64,000 bases of DNA, from positions 52,490-116,489 of the forward strand of contig JADHVL010000002.1 in assembly GCA_016784025.1 (NCBI GenBank). Reading direction: 5' to 3'. The notes under the pieces are model-generated. The model made no database searches. It saw nothing but the letters and a program-made list of their open reading frames with translations, and was not told where the DNA came from. The position numbers and the translations under genes were made by a program. Below are positions 2 through 11,586 of this stretch, piece after piece. The DNA comes from Fidelibacterota bacterium. GTDB lineage: Bacteria > Fidelibacterota > UBA8477 > JABMPR01. Position 1 is the stretch's first letter. Each line of letters starts with the position of its first letter.

Positions 2-172
2 GCTCATGTTTCGGGGAACATCGACACAGATGAATTGGGTCTCGTAAAGCAAAGTAATCCACAAGCCCGTCTGGGATTCATTGAAGGTGAACCTCAATTA
101 ATGAAGCTCACTTCGTCCCGGGATTTTGACCTCATTAAACTGTTTTTATCAAACGAATCCATCACTGCGTAA
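2..172 (+). CDS. 3' end of a CDS that enters from upstream of the window (C-terminal 56 aa, ...LIKLFLSNESITA*); product unknown
   Basis: Frame-2 reading frame is open from base 2 to a TAA at 170-172; no recognisable motif. It may belong to the same glycan locus as the downstream genes. Confidence 0.3.
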   Translation, partial: AHVSGNIDTDELGLVKQSNPQARLGFIEGEPQLMKLTSSRDFDLIKLFLSNESITA

Positions 173-180
173 GCTGCTGA

Positions 181-1257
181 ATGCACTCTAGCCAACCCCA
201 ACGTCTGGATTTTATATATAGCGCTGAGAAGGAAAAATCTGCGCTGCTGCCTCTCTACACTCACATGAAACAACACAATAGTGATGTCAGGATGGTTAAA
301 ATTCATCGACGAAGTATTTTTAAAAGTTATATCCGAAACCTTGCTCCCGTTGTGGTGGCCAGCTATGACATGACTTTAGATCGCGTAAAAAAGGCGGGGT
401 GGGTTGGCCGAACTGTGTACGTGGATCATGGGTTGAGTCCCGTCAAATACTATGCTTATCGATATGAAACATTTCACGATATAGACTTACTCTTTTACCC
501 CGGACCCGTTTTCAAAAAAATAATGGAAGTTCTCAACCCTGAGTTTAAGCAGGGTTTGCTTGGTGGACTTCCAAAGATGGATGAATTCATGGGTAGCAAA
601 ATCAATAAGGTGGATTACTGTGCAGAGTTGGGTCTAGATCCACAAAAACCAGTCGTATTGTTCGCGCCAACCTGGGGGGGTAAGTATGAATCAACTTGGG
701 GTATCAATAACGCCAGGTTTTTGTCAGGAATTCCAAACCTGGTAATCAGTCCACATCCTGCTGATTTCAAAGCGGCAAAGCGCTTTAATGCCATCCTCCC
801 TAAACAACCAGGTTCAACCAACGACTTGATCAAGATCGCCGATGTCGTCATCAGTGATGTGTCATCAATAGTAGGTGAGGCAGCCCTATTGGGGAAACCA
901 ACAATTCAACTTGAATTGCCAAATTATCCTGGATGCTTCCCAAATCCGGACAAACGCAAAAAGGGGGATTGGCTAGATGCGACGCGACTTTCTTTCTTCG
1001 CTGAGCAGGCGGATCCTATCAAGCGACCTTTTAAGCTGGCATTTTTAGATGAAGATTGGGTTTTGGGTTATACCAGCAAACCTGAGAACTTAATTGACAC
1101 CGTCGAAAGAGCCCTTTCCGAGCCAGAGCGTTTTGCTGAAAAACGAGCCTACTGGAATGAACAGAACTGCTATATGCCAGATGGAAATACCAATGAAAGA
1201 TTGACCAAAATGATATTTCATTATATTGACACTGGTGTTCTAAAACAATTTGGGTGA
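181..1257 (+). CDS. CDP-glycerol/CDP-ribitol poly(alditol-phosphate) phosphotransferase, TagF/TarL-like
   Basis: LFAPTWGGKYE (TagF 'APTWR' motif) and VISDVSSIVGEAALLGKP (TagF 'ITDYSS' motif) match the Glyphos_transf catalytic C-terminal half. The true start may be an internal Met. Confidence 0.65.
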   Translation: MHSSQPQRLDFIYSAEKEKSALLPLYTHMKQHNSDVRMVKIHRRSIFKSYIRNLAPVVVASYDMTLDRVKKAGWVGRTVYVDHGLSPVKYYAYRYETFHDIDLLFYPGPVFKKIMEVLNPEFKQGLLGGLPKMDEFMGSKINKVDYCAELGLDPQKPVVLFAPTWGGKYESTWGINNARFLSGIPNLVISPHPADFKAAKRFNAILPKQPGSTNDLIKIADVVISDVSSIVGEAALLGKPTIQLELPNYPGCFPNPDKRKKGDWLDATRLSFFAEQADPIKRPFKLAFLDEDWVLGYTSKPENLIDTVERALSEPERFAEKRAYWNEQNCYMPDGNTNERLTKMIFHYIDTGVLKQFG

Positions 1258-1329
1258 GCAGGAAACTCAACTATTTTTTTCGGTGCTGACCAACCAATCC
1301 AATTAAAAGAGAGATAACGTGGGTACTAT

Positions 1330-2625
1330 ATGAATGTAGCAATAATTCTGGCCGGTGGAAAAGGTGAGCGTTTTGGTGGTGAAGTCCCCAAGCAATTTGT
1401 CGTTCTTCACGGACACCGAGTAATGGATTATGCCATAAAAGCCTTCGAGCAGCATCCGGAAATTGATAAAATTATTATTGTGGTACCTGCAAATTGGAAG
1501 GCTGAGCTTGCCTTAGAATATCCACAACATCTGGTCGTCCTGGGAGGAGATACTCGACGAGAGTCATCCTATAATGGCTTAATTGCATGCCCTGAAGATA
1601 CAGATAAGGTGCTATTGCATGATGCTGCCAGACCCTTTTTGGACTATGACACTATTCAAAGAGTACTGGATGCATTAAAGAATTACGATGCTGTCGATAC
1701 AGCAATTGCTGCAACAGATACTATCATAGAAGTAAAAGACAATATCATTACTGACATGCCTGTCAGAGATTTTTTATACCAGGGCCAGACCCCCCAGGGG
1801 TTCAACTACAAGGTCATTCGTAAAGCACATGAAAGCATTTTTGTAGAGACCACTGATGACATACGCCTAGCCATTGAAATGGGTATACAATGTGTGTCCG
1901 TAGCTGGTTCTCAATTCAACTTTAAGATTACCTCTTCCAACGATTTATACATGGCTGAACGAGTCACCCAAATTAATGCAGTAAAAACCGCAGAAACCCC
2001 TCAGTTGGATGGCAAAAAAGTTTTAATTTTTGGTGGAACAGGTGGCATTGGTTCAGCACTAAGTGAGATTCTTAAAAGCCAAAATGCCGATGTAACTGCT
2101 TTGGGCTCAGAGGTGGATCTCACCAAAGACACCCTCCCTGAAAGTCTCACCAGAGACTGGGATATCATTATTCACACTGCAGGTATATTCATAAAGAAAC
2201 CGTTTTCTGAATTGAGTGTGGCCGAATGGGACAAAGTGATGGCCGTGAATTTGCGATCAGCGTTTCTAGTAGCTCAGCTTGCTCGAAAAACAATGAAACA
2301 GGGTGGGTGGCTCACTTTTATTGGATCCAGCTCATCCCATAGAGGACGAACCAGCCAGTCTGTTTACGCCGCTTCAAAAGCAGCACTAAACAATCTTACA
2401 CAATCGCTTGCTGCTGAATTTCTAGATGATAATATCAGGGTGAATTGTATAAATCCCCCGCGGACCGATACACCTATGCGGCACCAGGCTTTTCCTGGAG
2501 AAAATCGCGACTTATTAGCTGACCCTGGACAAGTGGCCAAAGATATTTTAAAATATTGCTCTGGTGAGGAAACGGGTCACATCGTAAACCTCAAATACAC
2601 CACGCAATTCCGGGCAAAGAGATGA
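1330..2625 (+). CDS. Bifunctional CDP-ribitol synthase, Bcs1-like: N-terminal IspD/TarI-type cytidylyltransferase fused to a C-terminal SDR reductase
   Basis: N-terminus ILAGGKGERFGGEVPKQF is the IspD/TarI cytidylyltransferase P-loop. C-terminal half has a Rossmann GGTGGIGSA motif and the SDR catalytic S...YAASKAA segment. Its ATGA stop/start overlaps the next gene. Confidence 0.8.
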   Translation: MNVAIILAGGKGERFGGEVPKQFVVLHGHRVMDYAIKAFEQHPEIDKIIIVVPANWKAELALEYPQHLVVLGGDTRRESSYNGLIACPEDTDKVLLHDAARPFLDYDTIQRVLDALKNYDAVDTAIAATDTIIEVKDNIITDMPVRDFLYQGQTPQGFNYKVIRKAHESIFVETTDDIRLAIEMGIQCVSVAGSQFNFKITSSNDLYMAERVTQINAVKTAETPQLDGKKVLIFGGTGGIGSALSEILKSQNADVTALGSEVDLTKDTLPESLTRDWDIIIHTAGIFIKKPFSELSVAEWDKVMAVNLRSAFLVAQLARKTMKQGGWLTFIGSSSSHRGRTSQSVYAASKAALNNLTQSLAAEFLDDNIRVNCINPPRTDTPMRHQAFPGENRDLLADPGQVAKDILKYCSGEETGHIVNLKYTTQFRAKR

Positions 2626-3713
2626 TTCAAACCCTGGGTAAGGTCTTTAAAGCATTGGACCGCGTAGGCCTGGAAAGTTGCATTGGGGATGAATCATTAT
2701 TTGGATTAGCTGAAGGTAATCTAGAAAAATATATATTCGATCCAGTCATTTATCAGTTCCCCACCAGACTCTCAGGAATCCGCTATATCGCTTTGACAGT
2801 CATCCTGTATTTTCAAGGTATCGTTGTAAAGCCTAAGTGGGTGCATGGAAGTTTTAGACTAAAAATAAGAGGGAAAACTGATACTGGCAGGAAGGCTGCT
2901 AATTTCATTTTTTTAATGCGACTAAAAAAAACACCTGATCATCTAGGTATATACGAAAATAACCGATCCTGCGTTTTCCCTGAGTCGGCCATGAGACCGC
3001 GGGAAGATTTCCCTTATAAGGATATAATTATTAAAACGCCCCCTCATCTGCACCAGTTTTCTACCGACTTCAAAAAACAACTTTTTTCAAATACCTATAG
3101 AACACACCCCACTAACTTTGACCAACAGACTGCTGATCAGGCAGAATCCATGCTTTTCCGGATTGCTGACATTCTAAATACCCAGGGAAGTCATTGGTGG
3201 CTTGAAGGGGGTACACTTCTTGGACTATTCCGAGATGGTAAATTATTGGATTGGGATCATGATATCGATCTTGGTCTCAAGTTTGAATCTGACGCGCAAA
3301 TTTCAAAGCTGATCCTTGAACTGAAAAAAACTCCCTACTACATCAAAATCTTAGACTTCCCCCAGAAGGAGGGTCTCTGGAACCTTGGTAACATCCGCCT
3401 GATAAAAATTTATCCACGACGTTTCTATTTTTTTCACACAGATCTCTGTCTTGATCTCTTTGTCTTTTATCGGGAAGCGTTTGAAAACGAAACTGATCCG
3501 GTTTACAAGTATGTTGTGCATCAGAGAAACGGATATCATTCGGCCTCCATTCTCGATGATTTAACAGATTTGTTCCATAAAGGTCATCGTCTTGGTCGGC
3601 CAGAGCAAACGGAAACTTTCTTGGCCAATAAGTATGGTGATAATTGGAGTACCCCTGTAAAAGAGTGGCATGTAGCCATTGATGATAAATCTATCCTCAA
3701 TAACATGGATTAG
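2622..3713 (+). CDS. LicD-family (fukutin/FKRP-fold) phospho-alcohol transferase
   Basis: WWLEGGTLLGLFRDGKLLDWDHDIDLGL matches the LicD nucleotidyltransferase-fold core. The N-terminal ~180 aa are unassigned, with a possible TM at YIALTVILYFQGIVV. Translationally coupled to the CDP-ribitol synthase. Confidence 0.7.
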   Translation: MIQTLGKVFKALDRVGLESCIGDESLFGLAEGNLEKYIFDPVIYQFPTRLSGIRYIALTVILYFQGIVVKPKWVHGSFRLKIRGKTDTGRKAANFIFLMRLKKTPDHLGIYENNRSCVFPESAMRPREDFPYKDIIIKTPPHLHQFSTDFKKQLFSNTYRTHPTNFDQQTADQAESMLFRIADILNTQGSHWWLEGGTLLGLFRDGKLLDWDHDIDLGLKFESDAQISKLILELKKTPYYIKILDFPQKEGLWNLGNIRLIKIYPRRFYFFHTDLCLDLFVFYREAFENETDPVYKYVVHQRNGYHSASILDDLTDLFHKGHRLGRPEQTETFLANKYGDNWSTPVKEWHVAIDDKSILNNMD

Positions 3714-3724
3714 GTCTGAGGCGA

Positions 3725-4357
3725 ATGCATACAATCGATTTATCATACCTACCTCAATTTTTAAAAAATGGGGTGTCTAAAAAAACCATCATTATAGGGA
3801 ACGGCCCCAGTGCAGCTGGGCACGCATTGGGCAAAGAGATTGATGACTTTGAGCAGATCATTCGCATTAATAATTATGTTACCCATAACATGGAAACCCA
3901 TGTTGGATCTCGAACAGATATCTGGGTCAATGGTGCCAATCAGGGTTTAAAGCGTCGTTCTGATATCCCTGAGAATATATTGGTGATGATTCCCCCCGTA
4001 GTTTTAAAGCATAAAGGTGATACCATACATCCTCGCATTACCAAACGACTTGGGACAAAAAATTATGCACTTCTACCAATAGAGATCATGTCTGAAATGG
4101 AATCAAGCTGTGGTCTTGATCGACCGACAACCGGATTCTTTGCCATTTATTTCTTTTACCTCTTGGGTCTTGACCTGACGCTTCACGGTTTCGATTTTTT
4201 TGTCGGTTCAACTGCTCATTATTTTGATAGTCCCCTTAAACGCTGGCTCAAAGAAAAGGGGCTCATTCGCAAAGCAGGAAAACATGATGTGAGTGGAGAA
4301 AAGGAATTTGTTGAGTCTCTTATCGGGCAGGAAAAAATAAAGCTTCTGACCGGTTAA
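3725..4357 (+). CDS. Cst-like (GT42 / DUF115 MAF-type) putative sialyl/nonulosonate transferase, short form
   Basis: IIIGNGPSAAGHALGKEIDDFEQIIRINNY resembles the Campylobacter Cst-II N-terminal 'IAGNGPSLKEID...FDVFRCNQ' CMP-sugar binding region. At 210 aa it is shorter than Cst-II. Confidence 0.45.
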   Translation: MHTIDLSYLPQFLKNGVSKKTIIIGNGPSAAGHALGKEIDDFEQIIRINNYVTHNMETHVGSRTDIWVNGANQGLKRRSDIPENILVMIPPVVLKHKGDTIHPRITKRLGTKNYALLPIEIMSEMESSCGLDRPTTGFFAIYFFYLLGLDLTLHGFDFFVGSTAHYFDSPLKRWLKEKGLIRKAGKHDVSGEKEFVESLIGQEKIKLLTG

Positions 4358-5256
4358 TGTCCGCGTTTCAAGGTCAGCAGTACCAGTCCTGAAATCGTAA
4401 TTACACCTCCTACAATCACATTCAAGGATACGATCTCACCAAAAAACAACCAGGCTAGAATCGATGCTAAAATTGGTTCTCCGAAAGGCATGGCTCCAAC
4501 AATTGTGGGCCGTATATACCTGACTGCATAGTTCATACTGTTATGCCCTATCAGGGTAGGCAAAATGACCAGGCCCAACAACCATTTGACATCGCTGGAT
4601 GAAAATTTCATATCGATACCTAGTCCCAGGATTACTCCTATCAGAGTCAAGGCAGCAAACAAGTAAAGCCAACGGGTATACATAATATTGGTAATATCCC
4701 TGCGTACTCGTTGACCTATAAGAAGCACAACTGACATGAAGGCTGAGCTGGCCAAAGCATAGAGATTTCCTGTGGTTGCCTCAGTTCCCCAATCAAACCC
4801 AGAACCTTGAACAATGAAGGCCCCAATAATTGCGATCCACAACCCCAGCAAGGCAGCTAAAGGCAACTTGTGCTTAAGAACGAACCGTTCATAAATAAGC
4901 GTAAAGATGGGAGCCATGGTCGCGAAGAGGGTGGCGTTTGCGATTGAAGTAAGTTTTATGGCTGAATAAAAAAATGCGAAATGTAATGCCAGGAATATGC
5001 CTGCAATGATAATTGCAGGGAATTTAGCAGTCTCTAGAGGTTTCTGGGGCTGGATGATACCGTGGGTCCATAGCATCGTGGAAGCACCGGCCATTCGCCA
5101 AAATGCGATTGTGAGTGCCGCCATTTCCGGGAGAAAACGAGCAAGCGGACCACCAAAGCTGACACCCAAAAGTCCAAATGCGAGGATGAAATAAACTTTA
5201 TTATTCATAGGCTTGAACATAAACCAGGTGAAGGATTCGGACACGTGCTGATTCAT
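4354..5256 (-). CDS. EamA/DMT-superfamily transporter (about 10 TM)
   Basis: Highly hydrophobic 300-aa protein with two repeated 5-TM halves, typical of the EamA duplication. It sits on the opposite strand inside the glycan locus. Confidence 0.65.
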   Translation of the reverse strand: MNQHVSESFTWFMFKPMNNKVYFILAFGLLGVSFGGPLARFLPEMAALTIAFWRMAGASTMLWTHGIIQPQKPLETAKFPAIIIAGIFLALHFAFFYSAIKLTSIANATLFATMAPIFTLIYERFVLKHKLPLAALLGLWIAIIGAFIVQGSGFDWGTEATTGNLYALASSAFMSVVLLIGQRVRRDITNIMYTRWLYLFAALTLIGVILGLGIDMKFSSSDVKWLLGLVILPTLIGHNSMNYAVRYIRPTIVGAMPFGEPILASILAWLFFGEIVSLNVIVGGVITISGLVLLTLKRGH

Positions 5257-5338: not shown

Positions 5339-6016
5339 ATGTCAATTTTTTGCATAATTCCAGCTCGTGGTGGCTCCAAGGGTGTTCCACATAAAAATAT
5401 TGCACCGTTCCTGGAGCAACCCTTGATAAGTCACTCTATCAAGTACGCCTTGGAATCCAGCTTGGTTGACAGGGTATTTGTGTCTACCGATGATGAACAG
5501 ATTACAGAAATATCCAGAAGTGATGGAGCTGAAGTCATCCCGAGACCCGCAGAACTTGCTGGTGATTCGGCGACTACCGAATCCGCTATTTCACATGCAA
5601 TCGAGTGGTGGCAAGAACAGAATTTGAATCCAACAATCATTGTTTTGCTCCAGGCTACCAGTCCGCTTAGGCCCAATGGCTCTTTGGACAATGCTCTAGA
5701 GAAGTTTCAAGCAGAAGGTTTCGATTCTTTACTCAGCATCTCTCCCACCCACAGATTTTTCTGGAGGGTTGACGAAAAAGAAGCACATGCCGAGTATGAT
5801 TTTATGAATCGACCAAGACGTCAAGATATGACAGAGGCTGATATCAGATATGTTGAAAATGGTTCCGTTTACATTTTTACATCAGACCATTTCAAGCGCA
5901 CTGGAAATAGACTTGGAGGGAGAATCGGATATACCATTTTTCCAGAAGAGTACAGTCCTGAAATAGATACACCGAGCGATTTTTTATTGCTGGAAAAAAT
6001 TGCTGAAAATTTATAA
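5339..6016 (+). CDS. neuA: CMP-nonulosonic acid synthetase (acylneuraminate cytidylyltransferase, NeuA/KdsB family)
   Basis: N-terminal IIPARGGSKGVPHKNI is the NeuA-family signature; length 225 aa. Confidence 0.8.
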   Translation: MSIFCIIPARGGSKGVPHKNIAPFLEQPLISHSIKYALESSLVDRVFVSTDDEQITEISRSDGAEVIPRPAELAGDSATTESAISHAIEWWQEQNLNPTIIVLLQATSPLRPNGSLDNALEKFQAEGFDSLLSISPTHRFFWRVDEKEAHAEYDFMNRPRRQDMTEADIRYVENGSVYIFTSDHFKRTGNRLGGRIGYTIFPEEYSPEIDTPSDFLLLEKIAENL

Positions 6017-6039
6017 AGATAGATCGTTTTACTAAAATA

Positions 6040-7101
6040 TTGGAGGTTGCTTTGCCAACTTTACAACTAGGCTCACATTGGGTAGGTAATAGTGAGCCAA
6101 CCTATATCATCGCTGAAATTGGTATCAATCACCAGGGTGAGGTGGAAATTGCAAAAAGGCTGATTCAAGAAGCGGCTGATGCAGGAGCCAATGCGGTTAA
6201 ATTTCAAAAGCGCAGTATAAAGCGCATCCTGACCCACGAAGGTCTGGAGATGCCCTATGACAATCGTAATTCATTTGGTAAAACCTATGGTGAGCATAAA
6301 AAAGCTCTGGAGCTTTCTGAGGATGACTATCAGGAACTCTTGAGTTTCGCCGCTGAACATAAAGTTGACTTTATCGCTTCTGGATGGGATGAAGAAAGTA
6401 TCGATTTTCTAGATACTTTAGGTGTCCCTTTTTTCAAAATGGCTTCAGCAGATTTGACCAACATACCATTGCTCATACATACGGCAAAAAAGAACAAGCC
6501 CATGATTCTATCAACCGGCATGGCTAACATGGAAATGGTAGAAACGGCTGTGAACGCCGTCAAGCCATTCGATGTGCCTCTATGCGTTCTACAGTGTACA
6601 TCGACATATCCATCAGTATTTGAAGAGGTTAATCTTGGTGTGATTCATACCTTCAAACAAAGATTTCCTGATGCAGTGATTGGCTATTCAGGGCACGAAT
6701 TAGGTATCGCTATCACTGAAGCGGCTGTAGCTCTTGGTGCTAAAATTGTTGAACGTCACTTTACCCTTGATCGTACCATGAAAGGTGGTGATCATGCCGC
6801 CTCCCTTGAACCAGGTGGCTTTTCAAAACTGGTTCGGGATATCCGCCATATTGAAGCGGCCATGGGTGGTTCATCCAAGCATGTACAGGAATCAGAAGCT
6901 CCCATTTTCAAAAAATTAGCTAAAAGTGTTGTCTCACAGGTAGTGATTCCTTCAGGGACTGTTCTTACAAGAGACATGCTAACAACTAAGGGTCCAGGAA
7001 CCGGTATTTCACCTGCTCGGATGGATGAGCTATTAGGAAAAATGGTTATCAAGGACATCGCCGCAGACGTTGTACTCAAGGATGAAGACATCAACTGGTA
7101 A
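6040..7101 (+). CDS. neuB: Nonulosonic acid (Neu5Ac/KDN 9-phosphate) synthase, NeuB family with C-terminal SAF domain
   Basis: YIIAEIGINHQGEVEIAKRLIQEAADAGANAVKFQ is the NeuB PEP-condensing core, followed by an SAF-like C-terminus. The start is probably TTG at 6040 or 6050, as there is no ATG. Confidence 0.85.
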   Translation: MEVALPTLQLGSHWVGNSEPTYIIAEIGINHQGEVEIAKRLIQEAADAGANAVKFQKRSIKRILTHEGLEMPYDNRNSFGKTYGEHKKALELSEDDYQELLSFAAEHKVDFIASGWDEESIDFLDTLGVPFFKMASADLTNIPLLIHTAKKNKPMILSTGMANMEMVETAVNAVKPFDVPLCVLQCTSTYPSVFEEVNLGVIHTFKQRFPDAVIGYSGHELGIAITEAAVALGAKIVERHFTLDRTMKGGDHAASLEPGGFSKLVRDIRHIEAAMGGSSKHVQESEAPIFKKLAKSVVSQVVIPSGTVLTRDMLTTKGPGTGISPARMDELLGKMVIKDIAADVVLKDEDINW

Positions 7102-7113
7102 TCAGGAGTTCTA

Positions 7114-7611
7114 ATGATATCTGAACAACTTCAGGCCAAAGCTCAAAAGATCAAATTGGTAGTAACTGATATAGATGGTGTCTGGACAGATGCAAAAATC
7201 TATTACACAGGAGAAGGGGAGTTACTAAAGGCATTTAGCTATTATGATGGTATGGGAACCGCCCTTCTTACTAAGGCCAATATCAGAACAGCCATCATTA
7301 CTGGCGAAAATTCAGAGCCTGTTGCCCGAAGAGCTGAGAAACTCAAAATTGAGGATGTTTTTCTTGGAGTTCATGATAAGCTTGAAGCCTTTGAGTCTCT
7401 TCTGGAAAAATACCAGCTCCACCCATCGGAAGTAGCCTATATCGGTGATGATCTAAATGACTATAATGTTATGCAGGTAGCCGGTCTCACTGCAGCACCT
7501 TCCAGCACGCCAGCCTTCCACATTCTCAAACCAGACATTTTGTTAAGCCGCGCTGGTGGTGATGGTGCCTTTAGAGAGTTTGCTGATCTCATCATAGCAT
7601 CTCAGCGATGA
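7114..7611 (+). CDS. KdsC-family HAD phosphatase (Kdo-8-P / Neu5Ac-9-P / KDN-9-P phosphatase type)
   Basis: VVTDIDGVWTD (HAD motif I, DxDG) and IGDDLNDYNVM (motif IV); 165 aa is typical of KdsC-type C0 HAD phosphatases. Confidence 0.75.
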   Translation: MISEQLQAKAQKIKLVVTDIDGVWTDAKIYYTGEGELLKAFSYYDGMGTALLTKANIRTAIITGENSEPVARRAEKLKIEDVFLGVHDKLEAFESLLEKYQLHPSEVAYIGDDLNDYNVMQVAGLTAAPSSTPAFHILKPDILLSRAGGDGAFREFADLIIASQR

Positions 7612-8879
7612 AAACGCTTTTCTATTCTCTCTATAATCTTCTTCTTTATTTAGTTTTACCCATACTATGGGTAAGCGCCTACTTTAATGATAAGCTTGCC
7701 GGGAGTTTATCAGGACAGAAAGATATAACTTCGAGAGTTTTACGTTTCAAAGATAAAGTTAAGTCTGATCCCAAACCAATTATCTGGACTCACTCAGCCT
7801 CAGCAGGTGAGTTCGAGCAGATGCGTCCTGTATTAAGCAGACTCTCTGAACTGGATGTTTACATCTACCAGACATTCACCTCTGCCACCATTTTCTACAA
7901 AGCATCACACAATAAAACCTTCCATGGTGTGAGCTTTCTTCCATGGGACCTATATACACGAGTGAATCATTTCGTTACACTTCTAGAACCTGATTTGTTT
8001 ATCAACACAAGGCACGATATCTGGCCCAATCTCCACTTCTCACTTCGTAATAACCAGATTAGAAATATTCTCATCAATGCCAACCTTTATCAGAATTCGA
8101 AACGGCTACTTCCTGGCCTGCGTGGGATCAATGCATTGGTTTTTAATCAAATAGATCACATATATACTGGATCTACTACTCTCAAATCATTGTTAGAGCA
8201 AATATATGCTGGACAAATAGATGTCGTGGGTGACTCACGGTTCGATCAAGTTCACGAACGCTCGATAAAAAACAAGGAAGTGTTGATAACTAATGATTTA
8301 ATAGCTGACCGACGGGTCGTTATATATGGATCTGTGGGTGATAGCGATTTAAAGATTATTACTGATGCCATTGCTCAAGTCCCAGGTGACAAGGCTTTTA
8401 TGCATATTATTGTTCCCCACGAAATTGCTGAACGAGATCTCATTCCTTGGGAGGCTGAGCTTTTCCGACAAAAGATTAAATCAATACGAAAAAGTGAACT
8501 TGCGCAGTTCAAAAATGAATCTGTGATCATCTGGGACAGTGTGGGTCAATTGGCAGACCTGTATAAATACGCCGATCTGGCATTTATTGGAGCTGGTTTT
8601 GGCGCAGGCGTACACTCTGTAACTGAAGCTGCCATATATAAAGTACCTAGTGCCCATGGCCCCAATTATGATATTCTAGCCGAAGCCATTGATCTAGTTG
8701 AGAAAGGACTATCAGCAGTAGTAAATGATGTTGTTGATCTCACAACCTTCTTGTCAATGCCTGAGGAAATCATTTCTGAAATTTCGGTGCAAATTGAGGT
8801 ATACGTTAACGAGGGACTTGGTGCTACTGATAGAATAATAAAGAGCGAACCTCTACTTCGTTCTCTTGCTCCACAATAA
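7608..8879 (+). CDS. GT30 glycosyltransferase, Kdo-transferase (WaaA/KdtA) homolog
   Basis: N-terminal TM followed by IWTHSASAGEFEQMRPVL, cf. the WaaA 'WxHxxSVGE' N-domain motif. Length 423 aa matches WaaA. Start overlaps the stop of the phosphatase. Confidence 0.6.
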   Translation: MKTLFYSLYNLLLYLVLPILWVSAYFNDKLAGSLSGQKDITSRVLRFKDKVKSDPKPIIWTHSASAGEFEQMRPVLSRLSELDVYIYQTFTSATIFYKASHNKTFHGVSFLPWDLYTRVNHFVTLLEPDLFINTRHDIWPNLHFSLRNNQIRNILINANLYQNSKRLLPGLRGINALVFNQIDHIYTGSTTLKSLLEQIYAGQIDVVGDSRFDQVHERSIKNKEVLITNDLIADRRVVIYGSVGDSDLKIITDAIAQVPGDKAFMHIIVPHEIAERDLIPWEAELFRQKIKSIRKSELAQFKNESVIIWDSVGQLADLYKYADLAFIGAGFGAGVHSVTEAAIYKVPSAHGPNYDILAEAIDLVEKGLSAVVNDVVDLTTFLSMPEEIISEISVQIEVYVNEGLGATDRIIKSEPLLRSLAPQ

Positions 8880-9088
8880 AATTAAGCAACAATTCCTGTC
8901 CAATATCTGGAGGGAATGTCACGAGAGATTCACCATCAATACATTCAATCAGCACTAATCTATTGATCCCAATCTGTTTTCCAATGTTATGGCAGAAAAC
9001 ACATGTTTTAATAAAACTTCTGAATGTCATCACATAGTTCTCAATTGTTTTATGAATAATTTAAATCATGTTTATTAAAATGAAATGG

Positions 9089-9128
9089 CCTTTCTATTTC
9101 CCATGGCACTCCAATGGAAATAGAAAGG
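9089..9128. terminator. 13-bp perfect inverted repeat (CCTTTCTATTTCC...GGAAATAGAAAGG), likely a bidirectional terminator between convergent genes
   Basis: Read directly in the sequence; lies between the convergent GT30 gene and tpx. Confidence 0.45.
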
Positions 9129-9160
9129 CGTTTAAATATTTACCATTCTGATGAAAAGTC

Positions 9161-9661
9161 TTATGCCAGTTTGGCGACGACCTCGTCATAATTTGGTTCG
9201 TCAGAAACAACAGGTACCTGCTGGGTGTAGGTTACTGTTCCGGCACTGTCCACCAGGATCACAACTCTAGACAAAAACCCTTTCATTGGACCATCAATAA
9301 CCTGCAATCCATAATCTTTTCCAAACTGTCCTGTTTCAAAATCAGAAAGAGTGATGACATTCTCCAGGCCTTCAGCGCCACAAAACCTTGATTGGGCAAA
9401 TGGCGTATCACGCGATATGCACAATACTTTTGTGTCTGGGAGCTTTCCTGCAAGTTCGTTAAAATAACGGACAGAAGCTGCACAGGTCCCAGTGTCAAGA
9501 CTGGGGAAGATATTTAGTACAAGGCGTTGTCCTTTAAAATCGACAATGCTTACTCTAGAGAGATCTTTGGCTACCAATTCAAAGTCTGCTGCCTTAGATC
9601 CTATCTCAGGTAACTCACCAATAGTGTGAACTGGATTACCACGTAAAGATATTGTTGCCAT
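9161..9661 (-). CDS. tpx: Thiol peroxidase (Tpx, atypical 2-Cys peroxiredoxin)
   Basis: SLDTGTCAASVRYFNE contains the Tpx peroxidatic Cys motif; 166 aa. Confidence 0.85.
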   Translation of the reverse strand: MATISLRGNPVHTIGELPEIGSKAADFELVAKDLSRVSIVDFKGQRLVLNIFPSLDTGTCAASVRYFNELAGKLPDTKVLCISRDTPFAQSRFCGAEGLENVITLSDFETGQFGKDYGLQVIDGPMKGFLSRVVILVDSAGTVTYTQQVPVVSDEPNYDEVVAKLA

Positions 9662-9804
9662 ATTTAATTTTCCTTTATAATTGTTTAAAATACTATTCCT
9701 GTCAATCTAACTCTGAATCAAGTTGCTGAATATTAAAATGCCACAATTAGTTCTTCACTAGGCTTTCAAAGCATCCTCAAAATGCACATGCAACCGTGAG
9801 ACTC

Positions 9805-10233
9805 CTATCGAATCTCCCAATCTTCCACATCACCTTCGATCAGGTTGAAGAGAGGATGAAGCTGTAACTCGATAGTCTCATTCAGCTTATGATATTTACC
9901 CAAGTCCCTCACTCTTAATTTTCCCAACAAATGAGTTTGTTCATAGAATAACTGTCCCGTGGTTACTGCTATAAATTTAGCGTCCACAGATGAGCCTATC
10001 TTGCTCTCATCAAAATGAAACCCACGTTGCTTAGCTTCTTCAAGAACACTAAGGAGATAAGAGTTAATATGGTTTAAGGGGTGATTTGTGGCTTTAAAGC
10101 GATGAAGTTGGGGATGATTCTGATACCCCTTGGTCATGCCTTCCAGGACACGTTTTGCCAACAAAGTTTCTCGCCAGAGAGCGGCCAATCCTTTGCTATC
10201 TAAATACATGGGATGAAGGGACCAAATTCTCAT
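9805..10233 (-). CDS. Pyrimidine-dimer DNA glycosylase (T4 endonuclease V-like, Pyr_excise family)
   Basis: N-terminus MRIWSLHPMYLDSKGLAALWRETLLAKRVL matches the conserved start of bacterial Pyr_excise proteins. Confidence 0.5.
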   Translation of the reverse strand: MRIWSLHPMYLDSKGLAALWRETLLAKRVLEGMTKGYQNHPQLHRFKATNHPLNHINSYLLSVLEEAKQRGFHFDESKIGSSVDAKFIAVTTGQLFYEQTHLLGKLRVRDLGKYHKLNETIELQLHPLFNLIEGDVEDWEIR

Positions 10234-10302
10234 TACTTAAACCTATATAAATAAGGAAAAAGAACTATGAAATCAATTTAACCATTAAGCTTGAGTGTTT
10301 AC

Positions 10303-11586
10303 TTAAGGTGTTCTGTGTCCTGAGGGTCTACGACGTTTAGGTCGACTTCCACCGCCACCTGAATTTGCAGGCTTCGATTTCTTCCGTAAGCCATATGGTA
10401 CTGCAGCATCCTTAGCTGCCACTTCAGGACTATAATTCAAAAAAGGATGCTCAGAGACAACTTTGATTTTTTGCTTGATCAATTTTTCAATATCTCGGAG
10501 AAATGCTTTTTCTTCCTCATCACAAAAGGAAAGGGCTATACCACTGAAACCAGCTCTCCCCGTTCGTCCGATACGGTGTACATATGTCTCGGAGATATTA
10601 GGAAGGTCATAGTTAACCACATGGGACAATTCATCAATATCAATCCCACGTGCAGCAATGTCTGTGGCCACCAGAACTTTAGTTTCTCCACTTTTAAAAT
10701 TTCCCAGCGCCCGTTGTCGAGCCGTCTGTGACTTATTGCTATGAATAGCTTCTGCTGAAACGCCTGCTCGATCCAAAAACTTGACAATTTTATTAGCGCC
10801 GTGTTTTGTCCGGGAAAAAACCAGGACAGACTCCATGGCTAAGGTGTTTAGTAAATGAATTAGAAGTTTTGTTTTACCCGGCTTACTGACAAAGTAAACG
10901 GCTTGTTCAACTTTCTCAGCAGTTGTCTGGTCAGGAGTCACAGACACTTTTTCAGGATTGCCCAGGATCTTACGAGAAAGGGCTACAATATCTGGAGGCA
11001 TAGTTGCAGAGAAAAACAAAGATTGACGCTTTGGTGGTAGCAGGGCAATCAGCTTTCTGATATCATGGATAAATCCCATGTCCAACATTCTGTCCGCTTC
11101 GTCTAGAACTGAGTATTCAACATCCTTTAAACTGATAAAACCCTGTCCAATGAGATCAAGGAGACGTCCAGGAGTAGCAACCAGGACATCAATACCCCGG
11201 TCGAGAATTTTGGTCTGGGCTCCCTGTTTTACACCACCAAAGATTACCGTGTTTTTAATCCCGGTATGCTTGCCATATACGCTAAAACTCTCGCCTATCT
11301 GTATGGCCAGTTCCCTCGTGGGGGTAACTATGAGAGCCTTTATTTTTCGATGGTCTCGATGGTCTCGATGGTTCTGCTTGTTTTGATGCTTCAGGTACAG
11401 GTGTTGGAGAATGGGTATGGCGAAGGCAGCCGTTTTCCCTGTTCCTGTCTGAGCACAACCAAGAAGATCCTTACCCCGTAATAGAATGGGAATGGATTGT
11501 TCCTGAATGGGAGTAGGATTGGTATAGCCTTCGGCACTCAATGCCCTGAGGATTGGGTCAATAAGCCCTAACTGTTGAAAAGTCAT
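10303..11586 (-). CDS. rhlE: DEAD-box ATP-dependent RNA helicase (RhlE-like) with a basic Gly/Arg-rich C-terminal tail
   Basis: Q-motif, GTGKT (motif I), [13 protein letters not shown] (motif II) and [10 protein letters not shown] (motif VI) are all present. Confidence 0.9.
11348..11377. repeat. In-frame 9-bp tandem repeat (CGATGGTCT x2.8) inside the RhlE-like helicase gene, encoding HRDHRDHR
   Basis: Read directly in the sequence. Confidence 0.6.

Follow-up and report, generated by a model that had tools for sequence, protein, structure and literature searches.

The licD gene and its junction with the upstream gene

A stretch of 64,000 nucleotides from a Fidelibacterota bacterium (NCBI GenBank assembly GCA_016784025.1, contig JADHVL010000002.1, positions 52,490 to 116,489 of the forward strand), called the window below, was used for the analysis. 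The gene in question is a licD gene near the start of the window, which encodes a LicD-family protein (the LicD protein below) and overlaps with its start the stop codon of a predicted cytidine diphosphate (CDP)-ribitol synthase gene. The original prediction for this DNA proposed from this placement that the LicD protein takes CDP-ribitol as donor, and that it may be a bacterial counterpart of the mammalian ribitol-phosphate transferases fukutin (FKTN) and fukutin-related protein (FKRP). Overall, our analysis suggests that the protein is most likely a soluble, cytoplasmic two-domain phosphotransferase, whose likely role is to attach ribitol-phosphate to a sugar chain of the cell surface. The coordinates of the features are listed in Table 1.

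At position 2622, licD starts with an ATG that runs into the TGA stop codon (2623-2625) of the upstream open reading frame (ORF). The resulting 4-base overlap was confirmed on the raw sequence and is kept in all loci examined of the LicD clade to which the query belongs (clade A, described below), at protein identities of 56-96%. Since it is kept in every one of these loci, the overlap is conserved and not a product of chance.

Analysis of the upstream ORF (1330..2625) revealed an IspD-type cytidylyltransferase joined to a short-chain dehydrogenase/reductase (SDR). The Pfam models IspD (2.4e-49, residues 3-211) and adh_short (6e-33) were both matched, and the GGTGGIG cofactor motif and the catalytic YAASK are present in the translation. 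The best matches in the PDB are ribitol-5-phosphate cytidylyltransferases of the TarI type (3f1c, 4jis, 6xhp and 2vsh). On the NCBIfam model for the ribitol-5-phosphate cytidylyltransferase subfamily (NF001183) the ORF scored 144 bits against a cutoff of 166, and a standalone IspD scored 93. The reductase of Bcs1 is of the SDR type. Haemophilus influenzae Bcs1 reduces ribulose-5-phosphate and activates it with cytidine triphosphate (CTP) to give CDP-ribitol (PMC10299916). The IspD-SDR fusion, with TarI enzymes as its top PDB matches, agrees with the earlier assignment of this gene, and we predict that it encodes a CDP-ribitol synthase of the Bcs1/TarIJ type.

The catalytic and N-terminal domains of the LicD protein

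The LicD protein passed the gathering score of the Pfam LicD model (PF04991; 32.5 vs 22.6 bits, E 1.2e-7), and PF04991 is precomputed on 28 of 28 homologues. The nearest database protein, at 96% identity, is annotated as 'LicD family protein [Candidatus Marinimicrobia bacterium]', which places the window in a genome of the marine SAR406 lineage (Marinimicrobia, Neomarinimicrobiota). The best NCBIfam match, Mf1, reached 43.5 bits, far under its cutoff of 225. The whole length of the protein, including the N-terminus, is conserved in 23 full-length homologues at 34-96% identity, so that the start codon is right; a spurious long ORF or a wrong start was ruled out on the same grounds. FKRP is the sole PDB match by sequence; its E-value is 1e-7 when the protein is searched by itself and 3.6e-14 with the family profile, which also matches the C-terminal region of FKRP. 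An AlphaFold (AF2) model built on the family alignment has a mean predicted local distance difference test score (pLDDT) of 84.9 and consists of two alpha/beta domains. Foldseek comparison of this model with the PDB placed FKRP chains at the top (E 2.4e-8, 189 columns), followed by the nucleotidyltransferases (NTases) LnuA, MenT and ANT(2''). The best structural match is thus FKRP and not a non-LicD fold, and the original description of the gene product as a LicD-domain protein is upheld by both sequence and fold.

The phmmer alignment to 6kaj laid the WDHDID of the query on the WDYDVD of FKRP. The three aspartic acids D212, D214 and D216 align to the FKRP triad and are invariant among 29 sequences; the conservation of the DxD residues is thereby confirmed. 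Invariant positions in the LicD alignment include, among others, E195-G201, R204, K207, W211, D212, H213, D214, D216 and D278, and across phyla the C-terminal domain keeps all its acidic residues and 28 invariant positions. The FKRP mutants D360A, D362A and D364A are inactive (PMC6965139). Judged by its spacing, D278 is probably the counterpart of FKRP D416. The licD gene therefore encodes a LicD-family protein with a LicD/NTase catalytic domain and an intact metal-binding triad.

The N-terminus had been suggested as a possible carrier of a membrane anchor; our analysis found there, instead, a degenerate second domain of LicD/NTase fold. Residues 1-165 modelled alone gave a pLDDT of 89.3 and a predicted TM-score (pTM) of 0.85. 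Foldseek again found FKRP as the best match of this domain (E 2e-5, TMq 0.63-0.66), followed by the LnuA and ANT(2'') NTases. The Foldseek output carries no target coordinates, and we infer that the matching part is the FKRP catalytic domain, because the remaining top matches are all NTases and the FKRP stem is of glycosyltransferase A (GT-A)-like fold. In hhalign, the family profiles of the N- and C-terminal halves aligned with an E-value of 2e-4 and a probability of 47%, collinear over 143 columns; the likeness of the two domains is taken from the Foldseek tables and hhalign and not from a coordinate superposition. The N-terminal domain retains a G-x-x-S-L-x-G turn (G22, S25, L26 and G28) and has G22, S25, L26 and Y37 as family-invariant residues; it has no DxD, and the acidic triad is absent. 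The highest 19-residue Kyte-Doolittle hydropathy is 1.57, at residues 51-69, which form a helix and a strand within the folded domain (pLDDT >90) and carry lysine and asparagine in homologues. An N-terminal membrane anchor was rejected on these observations. The LicD protein is accordingly regarded as two LicD-like domains in tandem, the first dead and presumed to be non-catalytic, the second active; the N-terminal domain probably serves in acceptor binding or scaffolding. Among the relatives there are also fusion proteins in which the LicD domain occurs twice or three times (P0066, 440 amino acids; P0041, 673 amino acids).

Related loci and the two clades of two-domain LicD proteins

A total of 185,579 species genomes were scanned, which gave 80 loci, and homologues of each window gene were mapped onto them. 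The gene block of the window locus was also recovered at 56% LicD identity. The two-domain LicD family was found in Neomarinimicrobiota and in metagenome-assembled genomes (MAGs) labelled Lentisphaeria, Cloacimonadota, Eisenbacteria and Chitinispirillum. Its loci (about 40 with the flank covered) almost always have a TagF-like gene upstream of licD and a gene similar to glycosyltransferase family 29 (GT29) together with nonulosonate genes downstream; the gene that licD overlaps encodes a cytidylyltransferase in nearly all of them.

A neighbour-joining tree of the LicD catalytic domain, rooted with the single-domain LicDs of Flavobacteriaceae, divided the two-domain family into two monophyletic clades. 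Clade A, which includes the query, has 61% identity within it and clade B 47%, with 36% between them. In clade A, licD overlaps the stop of the 431-residue IspD-SDR gene by 4 bases in all five of five lineages and in the metagenome contigs L085-L089. The MobA-like nucleotidyltransferase gene family NTP_transf_3 is absent within the flanks examined of the clade-A loci, and a search of genome and metagenome contigs for a clade-A licD coupled to NTP_transf_3 found none. In nearly all clade-B loci, licD overlaps (NTGA, 4 bases) the stop of such an NTP_transf_3 gene of 226 amino acids. This partner of the LicD subfamily is conserved across phyla, at 9303..9983 in L011 and L012, at 9393..10004 in L010 and also near 11300..12000 in L036-L084, and has no NCBIfam equivalog. 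It also adjoins the single-domain LicDs of Flavobacteriaceae, with 55-62% identity between Marinimicrobia and Flavobacteriaceae, and its product is presumably the ancestral LicD donor. One protein (P0121) joins NTP_transf_3 and LicD in a single chain, which speaks for a rule by which the donor is made by the gene that licD overlaps. A third arrangement, TagD followed by a TagF-like gene and a two-domain licD, was found in a Cloacimonadota MAG (L031, 8521..11059), where TagD, a glycerol-3-phosphate cytidylyltransferase, scored 191.5 bits on TIGR01518 (cutoff 165.4).

Four loci (L012, L017, L023 and L025) come from close relatives of the window organism, with NeuB 88-94% identical, the family 30 glycosyltransferase (GT30) 73-84% identical, and the GT29, NeuB, phosphatase and GT30 genes together 73-94% identical to those of the window. 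Yet at ~7400..11070 they carry a clade-B cassette, which comprises a standalone IspD, a TagF of ~45% identity, NTP_transf_3 and a LicD only 35-37% identical to that of the window. Since such close relatives carry the clade-B cassette, the clade-A and clade-B modules are alternative cassettes and not drifted orthologues, and the left part of the locus (window 181..3713) is a polymorphic cassette. This polymorphism looks like the serotype-type variation of surface glycans, here in SAR406.

Comparison of the residues directly before WDHDID revealed a further difference between the clades. A proline preceded by isoleucine, leucine or valine stands at this place in 62 of 75 motif-bearing relatives and in FKRP, and aspartic acid replaces it, as LD (L209-D210, 3249..3254 in the window), in eight of the 75, all of them in clade A.

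Donor of the LicD protein

CDP-ribitol appears to be the most likely donor because licD overlaps the stop of a cytidylyltransferase gene across the family and because, in clade A, this gene is the CDP-ribitol synthase. Considering the whole of the evidence, we propose CDP-ribitol as the donor in the query clade with moderate confidence, on grounds of gene order and sequence. A changed donor in clade A is favoured by its being a distinct clade of ~36% identity to clade B, by the alternative cassettes, by the replacement of proline with aspartic acid, and by the finding that NTP_transf_3, LicC-like and TagD homologues were not found in the window (tblastn, best E 0.34). The phosphocholine (Lic) system was rejected as an explanation of the locus on the same tblastn result and because neither a choline kinase nor a choline transporter is among the ~30 ORFs scanned.

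A number of points weigh against this assignment. The TagF-like gene that adjoins the synthase gene upstream is an equally obvious consumer of CDP-ribitol, missed in the original prediction, and could by itself account for the presence of the synthase; we consider its product a likely second, or even primary, consumer. In the sister clade and in the Flavobacteriaceae relatives the overlapped gene is NTP_transf_3, so that the adjacency in the window could be a deletion scar, and in L010, where the order is TagF, IspD-SDR, NTP_transf_3 and a clade-B LicD, licD is coupled to NTP_transf_3 although IspD-SDR is present. A donor synthase could also lie elsewhere in the genome, beyond the window. The ribitol-binding elements of FKRP, namely its zinc-finger loop and its ribitol (Rbo)-interacting loop, which are FKRP-specific, are absent from the LicD protein, residue-level evidence of ribitol recognition was not found in it, and the proline-to-aspartic acid change makes the site of clade A less similar to that of FKRP. 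The Pfam LicD alignment, moreover, spans residues 191-222 only, that is 32 residues. As to the earlier argument from placement, the comparison across the family strengthens the case for the donor, and the coupling of NTP_transf_3 in the sister clade and the TagF-like protein as a rival consumer count against it.

The strongest alternative is that the LicD protein keeps an ancestral donor made elsewhere, either the CDP-product of NTP_transf_3 or CDP-choline, CDP-ethanolamine or CDP-glycerol, that CDP-ribitol serves the TagF-like protein only, and that the ATGA junction is a deletion scar. NTP_transf_3 is coupled in clade B and conserved beside the single-domain relatives of Flavobacteriaceae, and is thus probably the ancestral partner; a single deletion in the gene order of L010 yields that of the window; and proteins of the TagF family are established bacterial users of CDP-ribitol (PMC10299916; see also PMC10901376). 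Against it stand the clade-A loci, all of which lack NTP_transf_3 in the flanks examined and retain the 4-base overlap with IspD-SDR, the distinct and long-diverged nature of the clade-A LicDs with their altered active-site motif, and the lack of an NTP_transf_3 or TagD homologue in the window. Taken together, we regard retention of an ancestral donor as a possible but rather unlikely explanation.

A variant of the CDP-ribitol assignment, which differs from it in product length, is that the LicD protein acts as a ribitol-phosphate polymerase that makes a teichoic acid-like polymer or a linker. A precedent is CpsC of Actinobacillus pleuropneumoniae, which belongs to the LicD family and polymerises glycerol-3-phosphate once the TagF-like CpsA has primed the acceptor (PMC11666461), the pairing of TagF with LicD is conserved and sometimes takes the form of a fusion, and L031 mirrors the cpsB-cpsA-cpsC arrangement. 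The N-terminus of CpsC, however, is a tetratricopeptide repeat (TPR) domain and not a pseudo-LicD domain, a kps-type ABC exporter and KpsS/KpsC were not found within 10 kb of the locus, and two further glycosyltransferases at the locus suggest a short mixed glycan, so that this variant is improbable. That the LicD fold is non-enzymatic or repurposed here, as the short Pfam match and the clear degeneration of one of the two domains might indicate, is very improbable in view of the acidic residues and 28 invariant positions retained in the C-terminal domain, the superposition of the whole domain, along 189 columns, on that of FKRP with its catalytic site, and the profile match to the FKRP C-terminal region.

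If CDP-ribitol is the donor, the pathway may be pictured as follows. The Bcs1/TarIJ-type enzyme would make CDP-ribitol from ribulose-5-phosphate, NADPH and CTP. The C-terminal NTase-fold domain of the LicD protein would bind a divalent metal through D212, D214 and D216, and probably also D278, and would move ribitol-5-phosphate from CDP-ribitol to a hydroxyl of the glycan acceptor with release of cytidine monophosphate (CMP). By analogy with CpsA and CpsC, one of the LicD and TagF-like partners may prime the acceptor with ribitol-phosphate and the other add further units; a LicD-TagF fusion among the relatives (P0085, 560 amino acids) supports joint action of the two enzymes. A sugar of the 2-keto-3-deoxynononic acid (Kdn)/sialic acid type would be made by NeuB, a phosphatase and a CMP-synthetase, and then transferred by the GT29-like or the GT30-like enzyme, or by both. 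The output of the locus would be a surface glycoconjugate of SAR406 bacteria.

A broader scheme, which we put forward as tentative and rather doubtful in its full form, is that the overlapped gene is a swappable donor-specificity cassette, consisting of the CDP-ribitol synthase, NTP_transf_3, or TagD ahead of TagF, each with a co-evolved LicD clade, in SAR406 and allied bacteria of the FCB group. Where the cassette supplies CDP-ribitol, the TagF-like protein and the LicD protein would lay tandem or oligomeric ribitol-phosphate on a sugar of the Kdn or 3-deoxy-octulosonic acid (Kdo) type, as a functional analogue of the FKTN-to-FKRP step and of CpsA/CpsC, and the dead N-terminal domain would recognise the acceptor phosphate as the FKRP stem does in trans.

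Comparison with known systems

The LicD protein shares with FKRP and FKTN (PDB 6KAJ-6KAN; PMC6965139, PMC4873967) the NTase/LicD catalytic fold and the presumed donor, CDP-ribitol, which an ISPD/TarI-type enzyme provides. With FKRP it further shares WxEGG(T/S)LLG...WDxDxD with the three catalytic aspartic acids and a conserved C-terminal FLExK(Y/F)G region, and the action of FKTN and then FKRP in series resembles the pair of transferases, TagF-like and LicD, at the window locus. The differences are as follows. FKRP has a type II membrane anchor, and the LicD protein has none, its bacterial setting being cytoplasmic. The stem of FKRP is GT-A-like and similar to polypeptide N-acetylgalactosaminyltransferases (ppGalNAcT-like; PMC6965139), whereas the LicD protein has a dead NTase fold in its N-terminal half. 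FKRP has a C4 zinc-finger loop (C289, C296, C317 and C318) ahead of its catalytic core, which is conserved in FKRP orthologues only (PMC6965139), whereas the LicD protein holds no cysteine in residues 120-275, where this loop would correspond. The FKRP-specific Rbo-interacting loop could not be identified in the LicD protein. FKRP has proline before its WDYD where clade A has aspartic acid before WDHD.

The FKRP fragments 289-331 and 395-435 scored 38.2 and 5.7 bits, respectively, against a hidden Markov model of clade A, compared with 50-55 and 13-16 bits against the clade-B, single-domain and mid-length LicD groups. By these sequence scores, clade A stands furthest from FKRP among the four related LicD groups. 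The LicD protein is not an FKRP orthologue. A special kinship with FKRP was ruled out by the lowest fragment scores together with the lack of a zinc-finger loop and of a GT-A stem. The description of the LicD protein as a bacterial counterpart of FKTN and FKRP consequently holds for the fold and the DxDxD motif; it fails for the stem, the zinc finger and the anchor, and the FKRP scores are the lowest of the groups compared.

In A. pleuropneumoniae, the TagF-like CpsA primes poly-Kdo with one glycerol-3-phosphate and the LicD-family CpsC extends it (PMC11666461). The CpsA/CpsC system with CpsB is like the window locus in having TagF-family and LicD-family genes beside a CDP-polyol synthase gene, and its acceptor contains an ulosonic acid, as that of the window locus may do; the TagD-TagF-LicD order of L031 follows the same gene logic as cpsB-cpsA-cpsC. 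In contrast, CpsA/CpsC use CDP-glycerol as donor, the N-terminus of CpsC is a TPR domain (PMC11666461) where the LicD protein has an NTase-like domain, and cpsA and cpsC form part of a capsule locus of the kps ABC-transporter type with its poly-Kdo glycolipid, none of whose genes was seen at the window locus. The window locus adds GT29-like, GT30-like and Kdn-type genes. Since both a TPR domain and a kps context are missing, the LicD protein does not count as an orthologue of CpsC either.

Ribitol-phosphate transfer has been assigned to LicD3 of Streptococcus pneumoniae and S. oralis (PMC4649388), and CDP-ribitol made by a TarI homologue has been put forward as the donor for the LicD homologues of the Enterococcus faecalis polysaccharide antigen (EPA; PMC7188991). 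These proteins resemble the LicD protein in their proposed ribitol-phosphate transfer, with CDP-ribitol from TarI/TarJ homologues encoded nearby. They differ in belonging to Gram-positive teichoic acid or rhamnopolysaccharide systems with undecaprenyl carriers and in having no tandem pseudo-LicD domain reported, and their assignments are mainly genetic or inferential. The phosphocholine transferases LicD1 and LicD2, and Mf1 of Mycoplasma fermentans, belong to the same Pfam family as the LicD protein; the window locus lacks the choline genes licA, licB and licC, and the gene coupled to licD is the CDP-ribitol synthase gene in clade A and NTP_transf_3 in clade B. The H. influenzae pair Bcs1 and Bcs3 CroT (PMC10299916) is similar in that a one-polypeptide reductase/cytidylyltransferase stands beside a TagF-like enzyme for ribitol-phosphate transfer, at a Gram-negative locus for a surface polymer, but Bcs3 is a large multi-enzyme polymerase with no LicD partner and with kps-type capsule export, unlike the window locus.

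Bacterial ISPD-LicD fusions were used by Gerin et al. to infer the function of FKTN and FKRP (PMC4873967). The use of CDP-ribitol by bacterial LicDs is therefore an established idea, and the LicD protein is largely an expected member of a known enzyme family. Little is added for the field of dystroglycanopathies, since the bacterial LicD/ISPD link was the original clue to the function of FKTN and FKRP. To our knowledge, the dead-plus-active tandem of LicD domains, the overlap syntax with exchangeable donor synthases, and the SAR406 setting with a bacterial GT29 are new. If the assignment is true, the protein would be a ribitol-phosphate transferase of LicD fold from bacteria that is soluble and has two domains, perhaps easier to express and an aid to work on structure and mechanism in an enzyme class represented in the PDB by human FKRP only, and it may find use in the chemoenzymatic synthesis of ribitol-phosphate glycans. 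What may matter more is a simple rule for predicting the donors of uncharacterised LicDs, namely that the start of licD overlaps the stop of the gene that makes the donor. The cassettes also show this type of surface-glycan variation in an abundant, uncultured ocean lineage.

Neighbouring genes

Table 1. Features of the licD locus in the window, with positions counted from its first nucleotide.
Feature	Position	Strand	Length and evidence
Standalone ispD, 3' end (last 56 codons)	2..169	+	tblastn with the 228-residue IspD of L001: 91% over residues 173-228
TagF-like CDP-polyol phosphotransferase	181..1257	+	358 aa; Pfam Glyphos_transf (PF04464) 1.4e-12, 47.7 vs 22.1 bits
Bifunctional CDP-ribitol synthase, Bcs1/TarI-TarJ type (predicted)	1330..2625	+	431 aa; TarI-like ~1-215 and SDR reductase ~222-431
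ATGA start/stop overlap, synthase/licD	2622..2625	+	read from the sequence as 'AGATGATTC'
ORF of the LicD protein	2622..3713	+	363 aa; ORF list and raw sequence
N-terminal degenerate LicD/NTase-fold domain, residues 1-165	2622..3116	+	separate model, Foldseek, hhalign; lacks acidic triad
C-terminal catalytic LicD domain (~residues 166-346) and disordered tail	3117..3713	+	Pfam LicD; FKRP by sequence and fold
DxDxD metal-binding motif, codons D212-H213-D214-I215-D216	3255..3269	+	equivalent to FKRP D360/D362/D364
Codon of invariant D278 (LCLDLF strand)	3453..3455	+	invariant in alignment; model strand 276-286
Minimal bacterial GT29-like sialyltransferase	3725..4357	+	210 aa; Pfam Glyco_transf_29 (PF00777) 5.4e-16
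EamA/drug-metabolite transporter (DMT)	4354..5256	-	Pfam EamA 7.1e-31
CMP-nonulosonate (Kdn/Sia-type) synthetase	5339..6016	+	Pfam CTP_transf_3 2.3e-24; NCBIfam PseF 134 bits (below cutoff)
NeuB-family nonulosonate(-9-phosphate) synthase	6040..7101	+	Pfam NeuB 3e-80; NeuB_NnaB 340 bits (cutoff 399.65)
KdsC/Kdn-9-phosphate-type haloacid dehalogenase (HAD) phosphatase	7114..7611	+	KDN-9-P phosphatase 168.5 bits (cutoff 180); KdsC subfamily 151.8 (>106.95)
Divergent GT30, Kdo-transferase-like; last gene of conserved block	7608..8879	+	Pfam Glycos_transf_N 3.7e-27

The standalone ispD whose 3' end opens the window is probably a housekeeping gene of the methylerythritol phosphate (MEP) pathway; its counterpart in L001 scored 200 bits on TIGR00453 and 93 bits on the TarI subfamily model. 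The TagF-like protein matched the CgoT region of the TagF-like polymerase Cps3D in the PDB (8qoy, E 1e-4) and has His83 (VDHG) and His192 (SPHP), the latter aligning with the histidine of Cps3D CgoT; the two are candidate counterparts of the TagF catalytic histidines H444 and H584.

The GT29-like gene always lies directly 3' of licD in the related loci. Alignment of its product with porcine ST3Gal-I revealed recognisable regions of sialylmotifs L, S, III and VS. Genes for GT29 enzymes in bacteria were described earlier (PMC5811610); the conserved context of licD, with its Kdn-type pathway and ribitol-phosphate enzymes, could give a handle on the role of bacterial GT29 enzymes. The EamA transporter gene, which lies on the opposite strand inside the locus, is a variable member present in only some of the related loci, and its product has a weak match to the triose-phosphate/nucleotide-sugar transporter family.

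The nonulosonate module (5339..8879) suggests Kdn rather than Neu5Ac as product, because it has a NeuB-family synthase and a 9-phosphate-type phosphatase and no NeuC. The GT30-like protein at its end scored at most 117 bits on the NCBIfam WaaA models, the cutoffs of which are at least 363. No initiating transferase, flippase or exporter was found within 10 kb of the locus, and within the same distance no kps-type ABC exporter or KpsS/KpsC genes were found in the window, L001 and L002. The region from 9 to 38 kb of the window contains housekeeping genes and was uninformative.

Just beyond the GT30-like gene, the minus strand of the window (8869..8979) holds a 37-codon remnant, at 70% identity, of a gene for a 560-residue protein with an N-glycanase_C domain. 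This gene is intact in the 96%-identical relative L001 (16245..17927), where it lies between the GT30 and peroxiredoxin genes, and the window and L001 differ here by a deletion or insertion of 1.7 kb that is recent.

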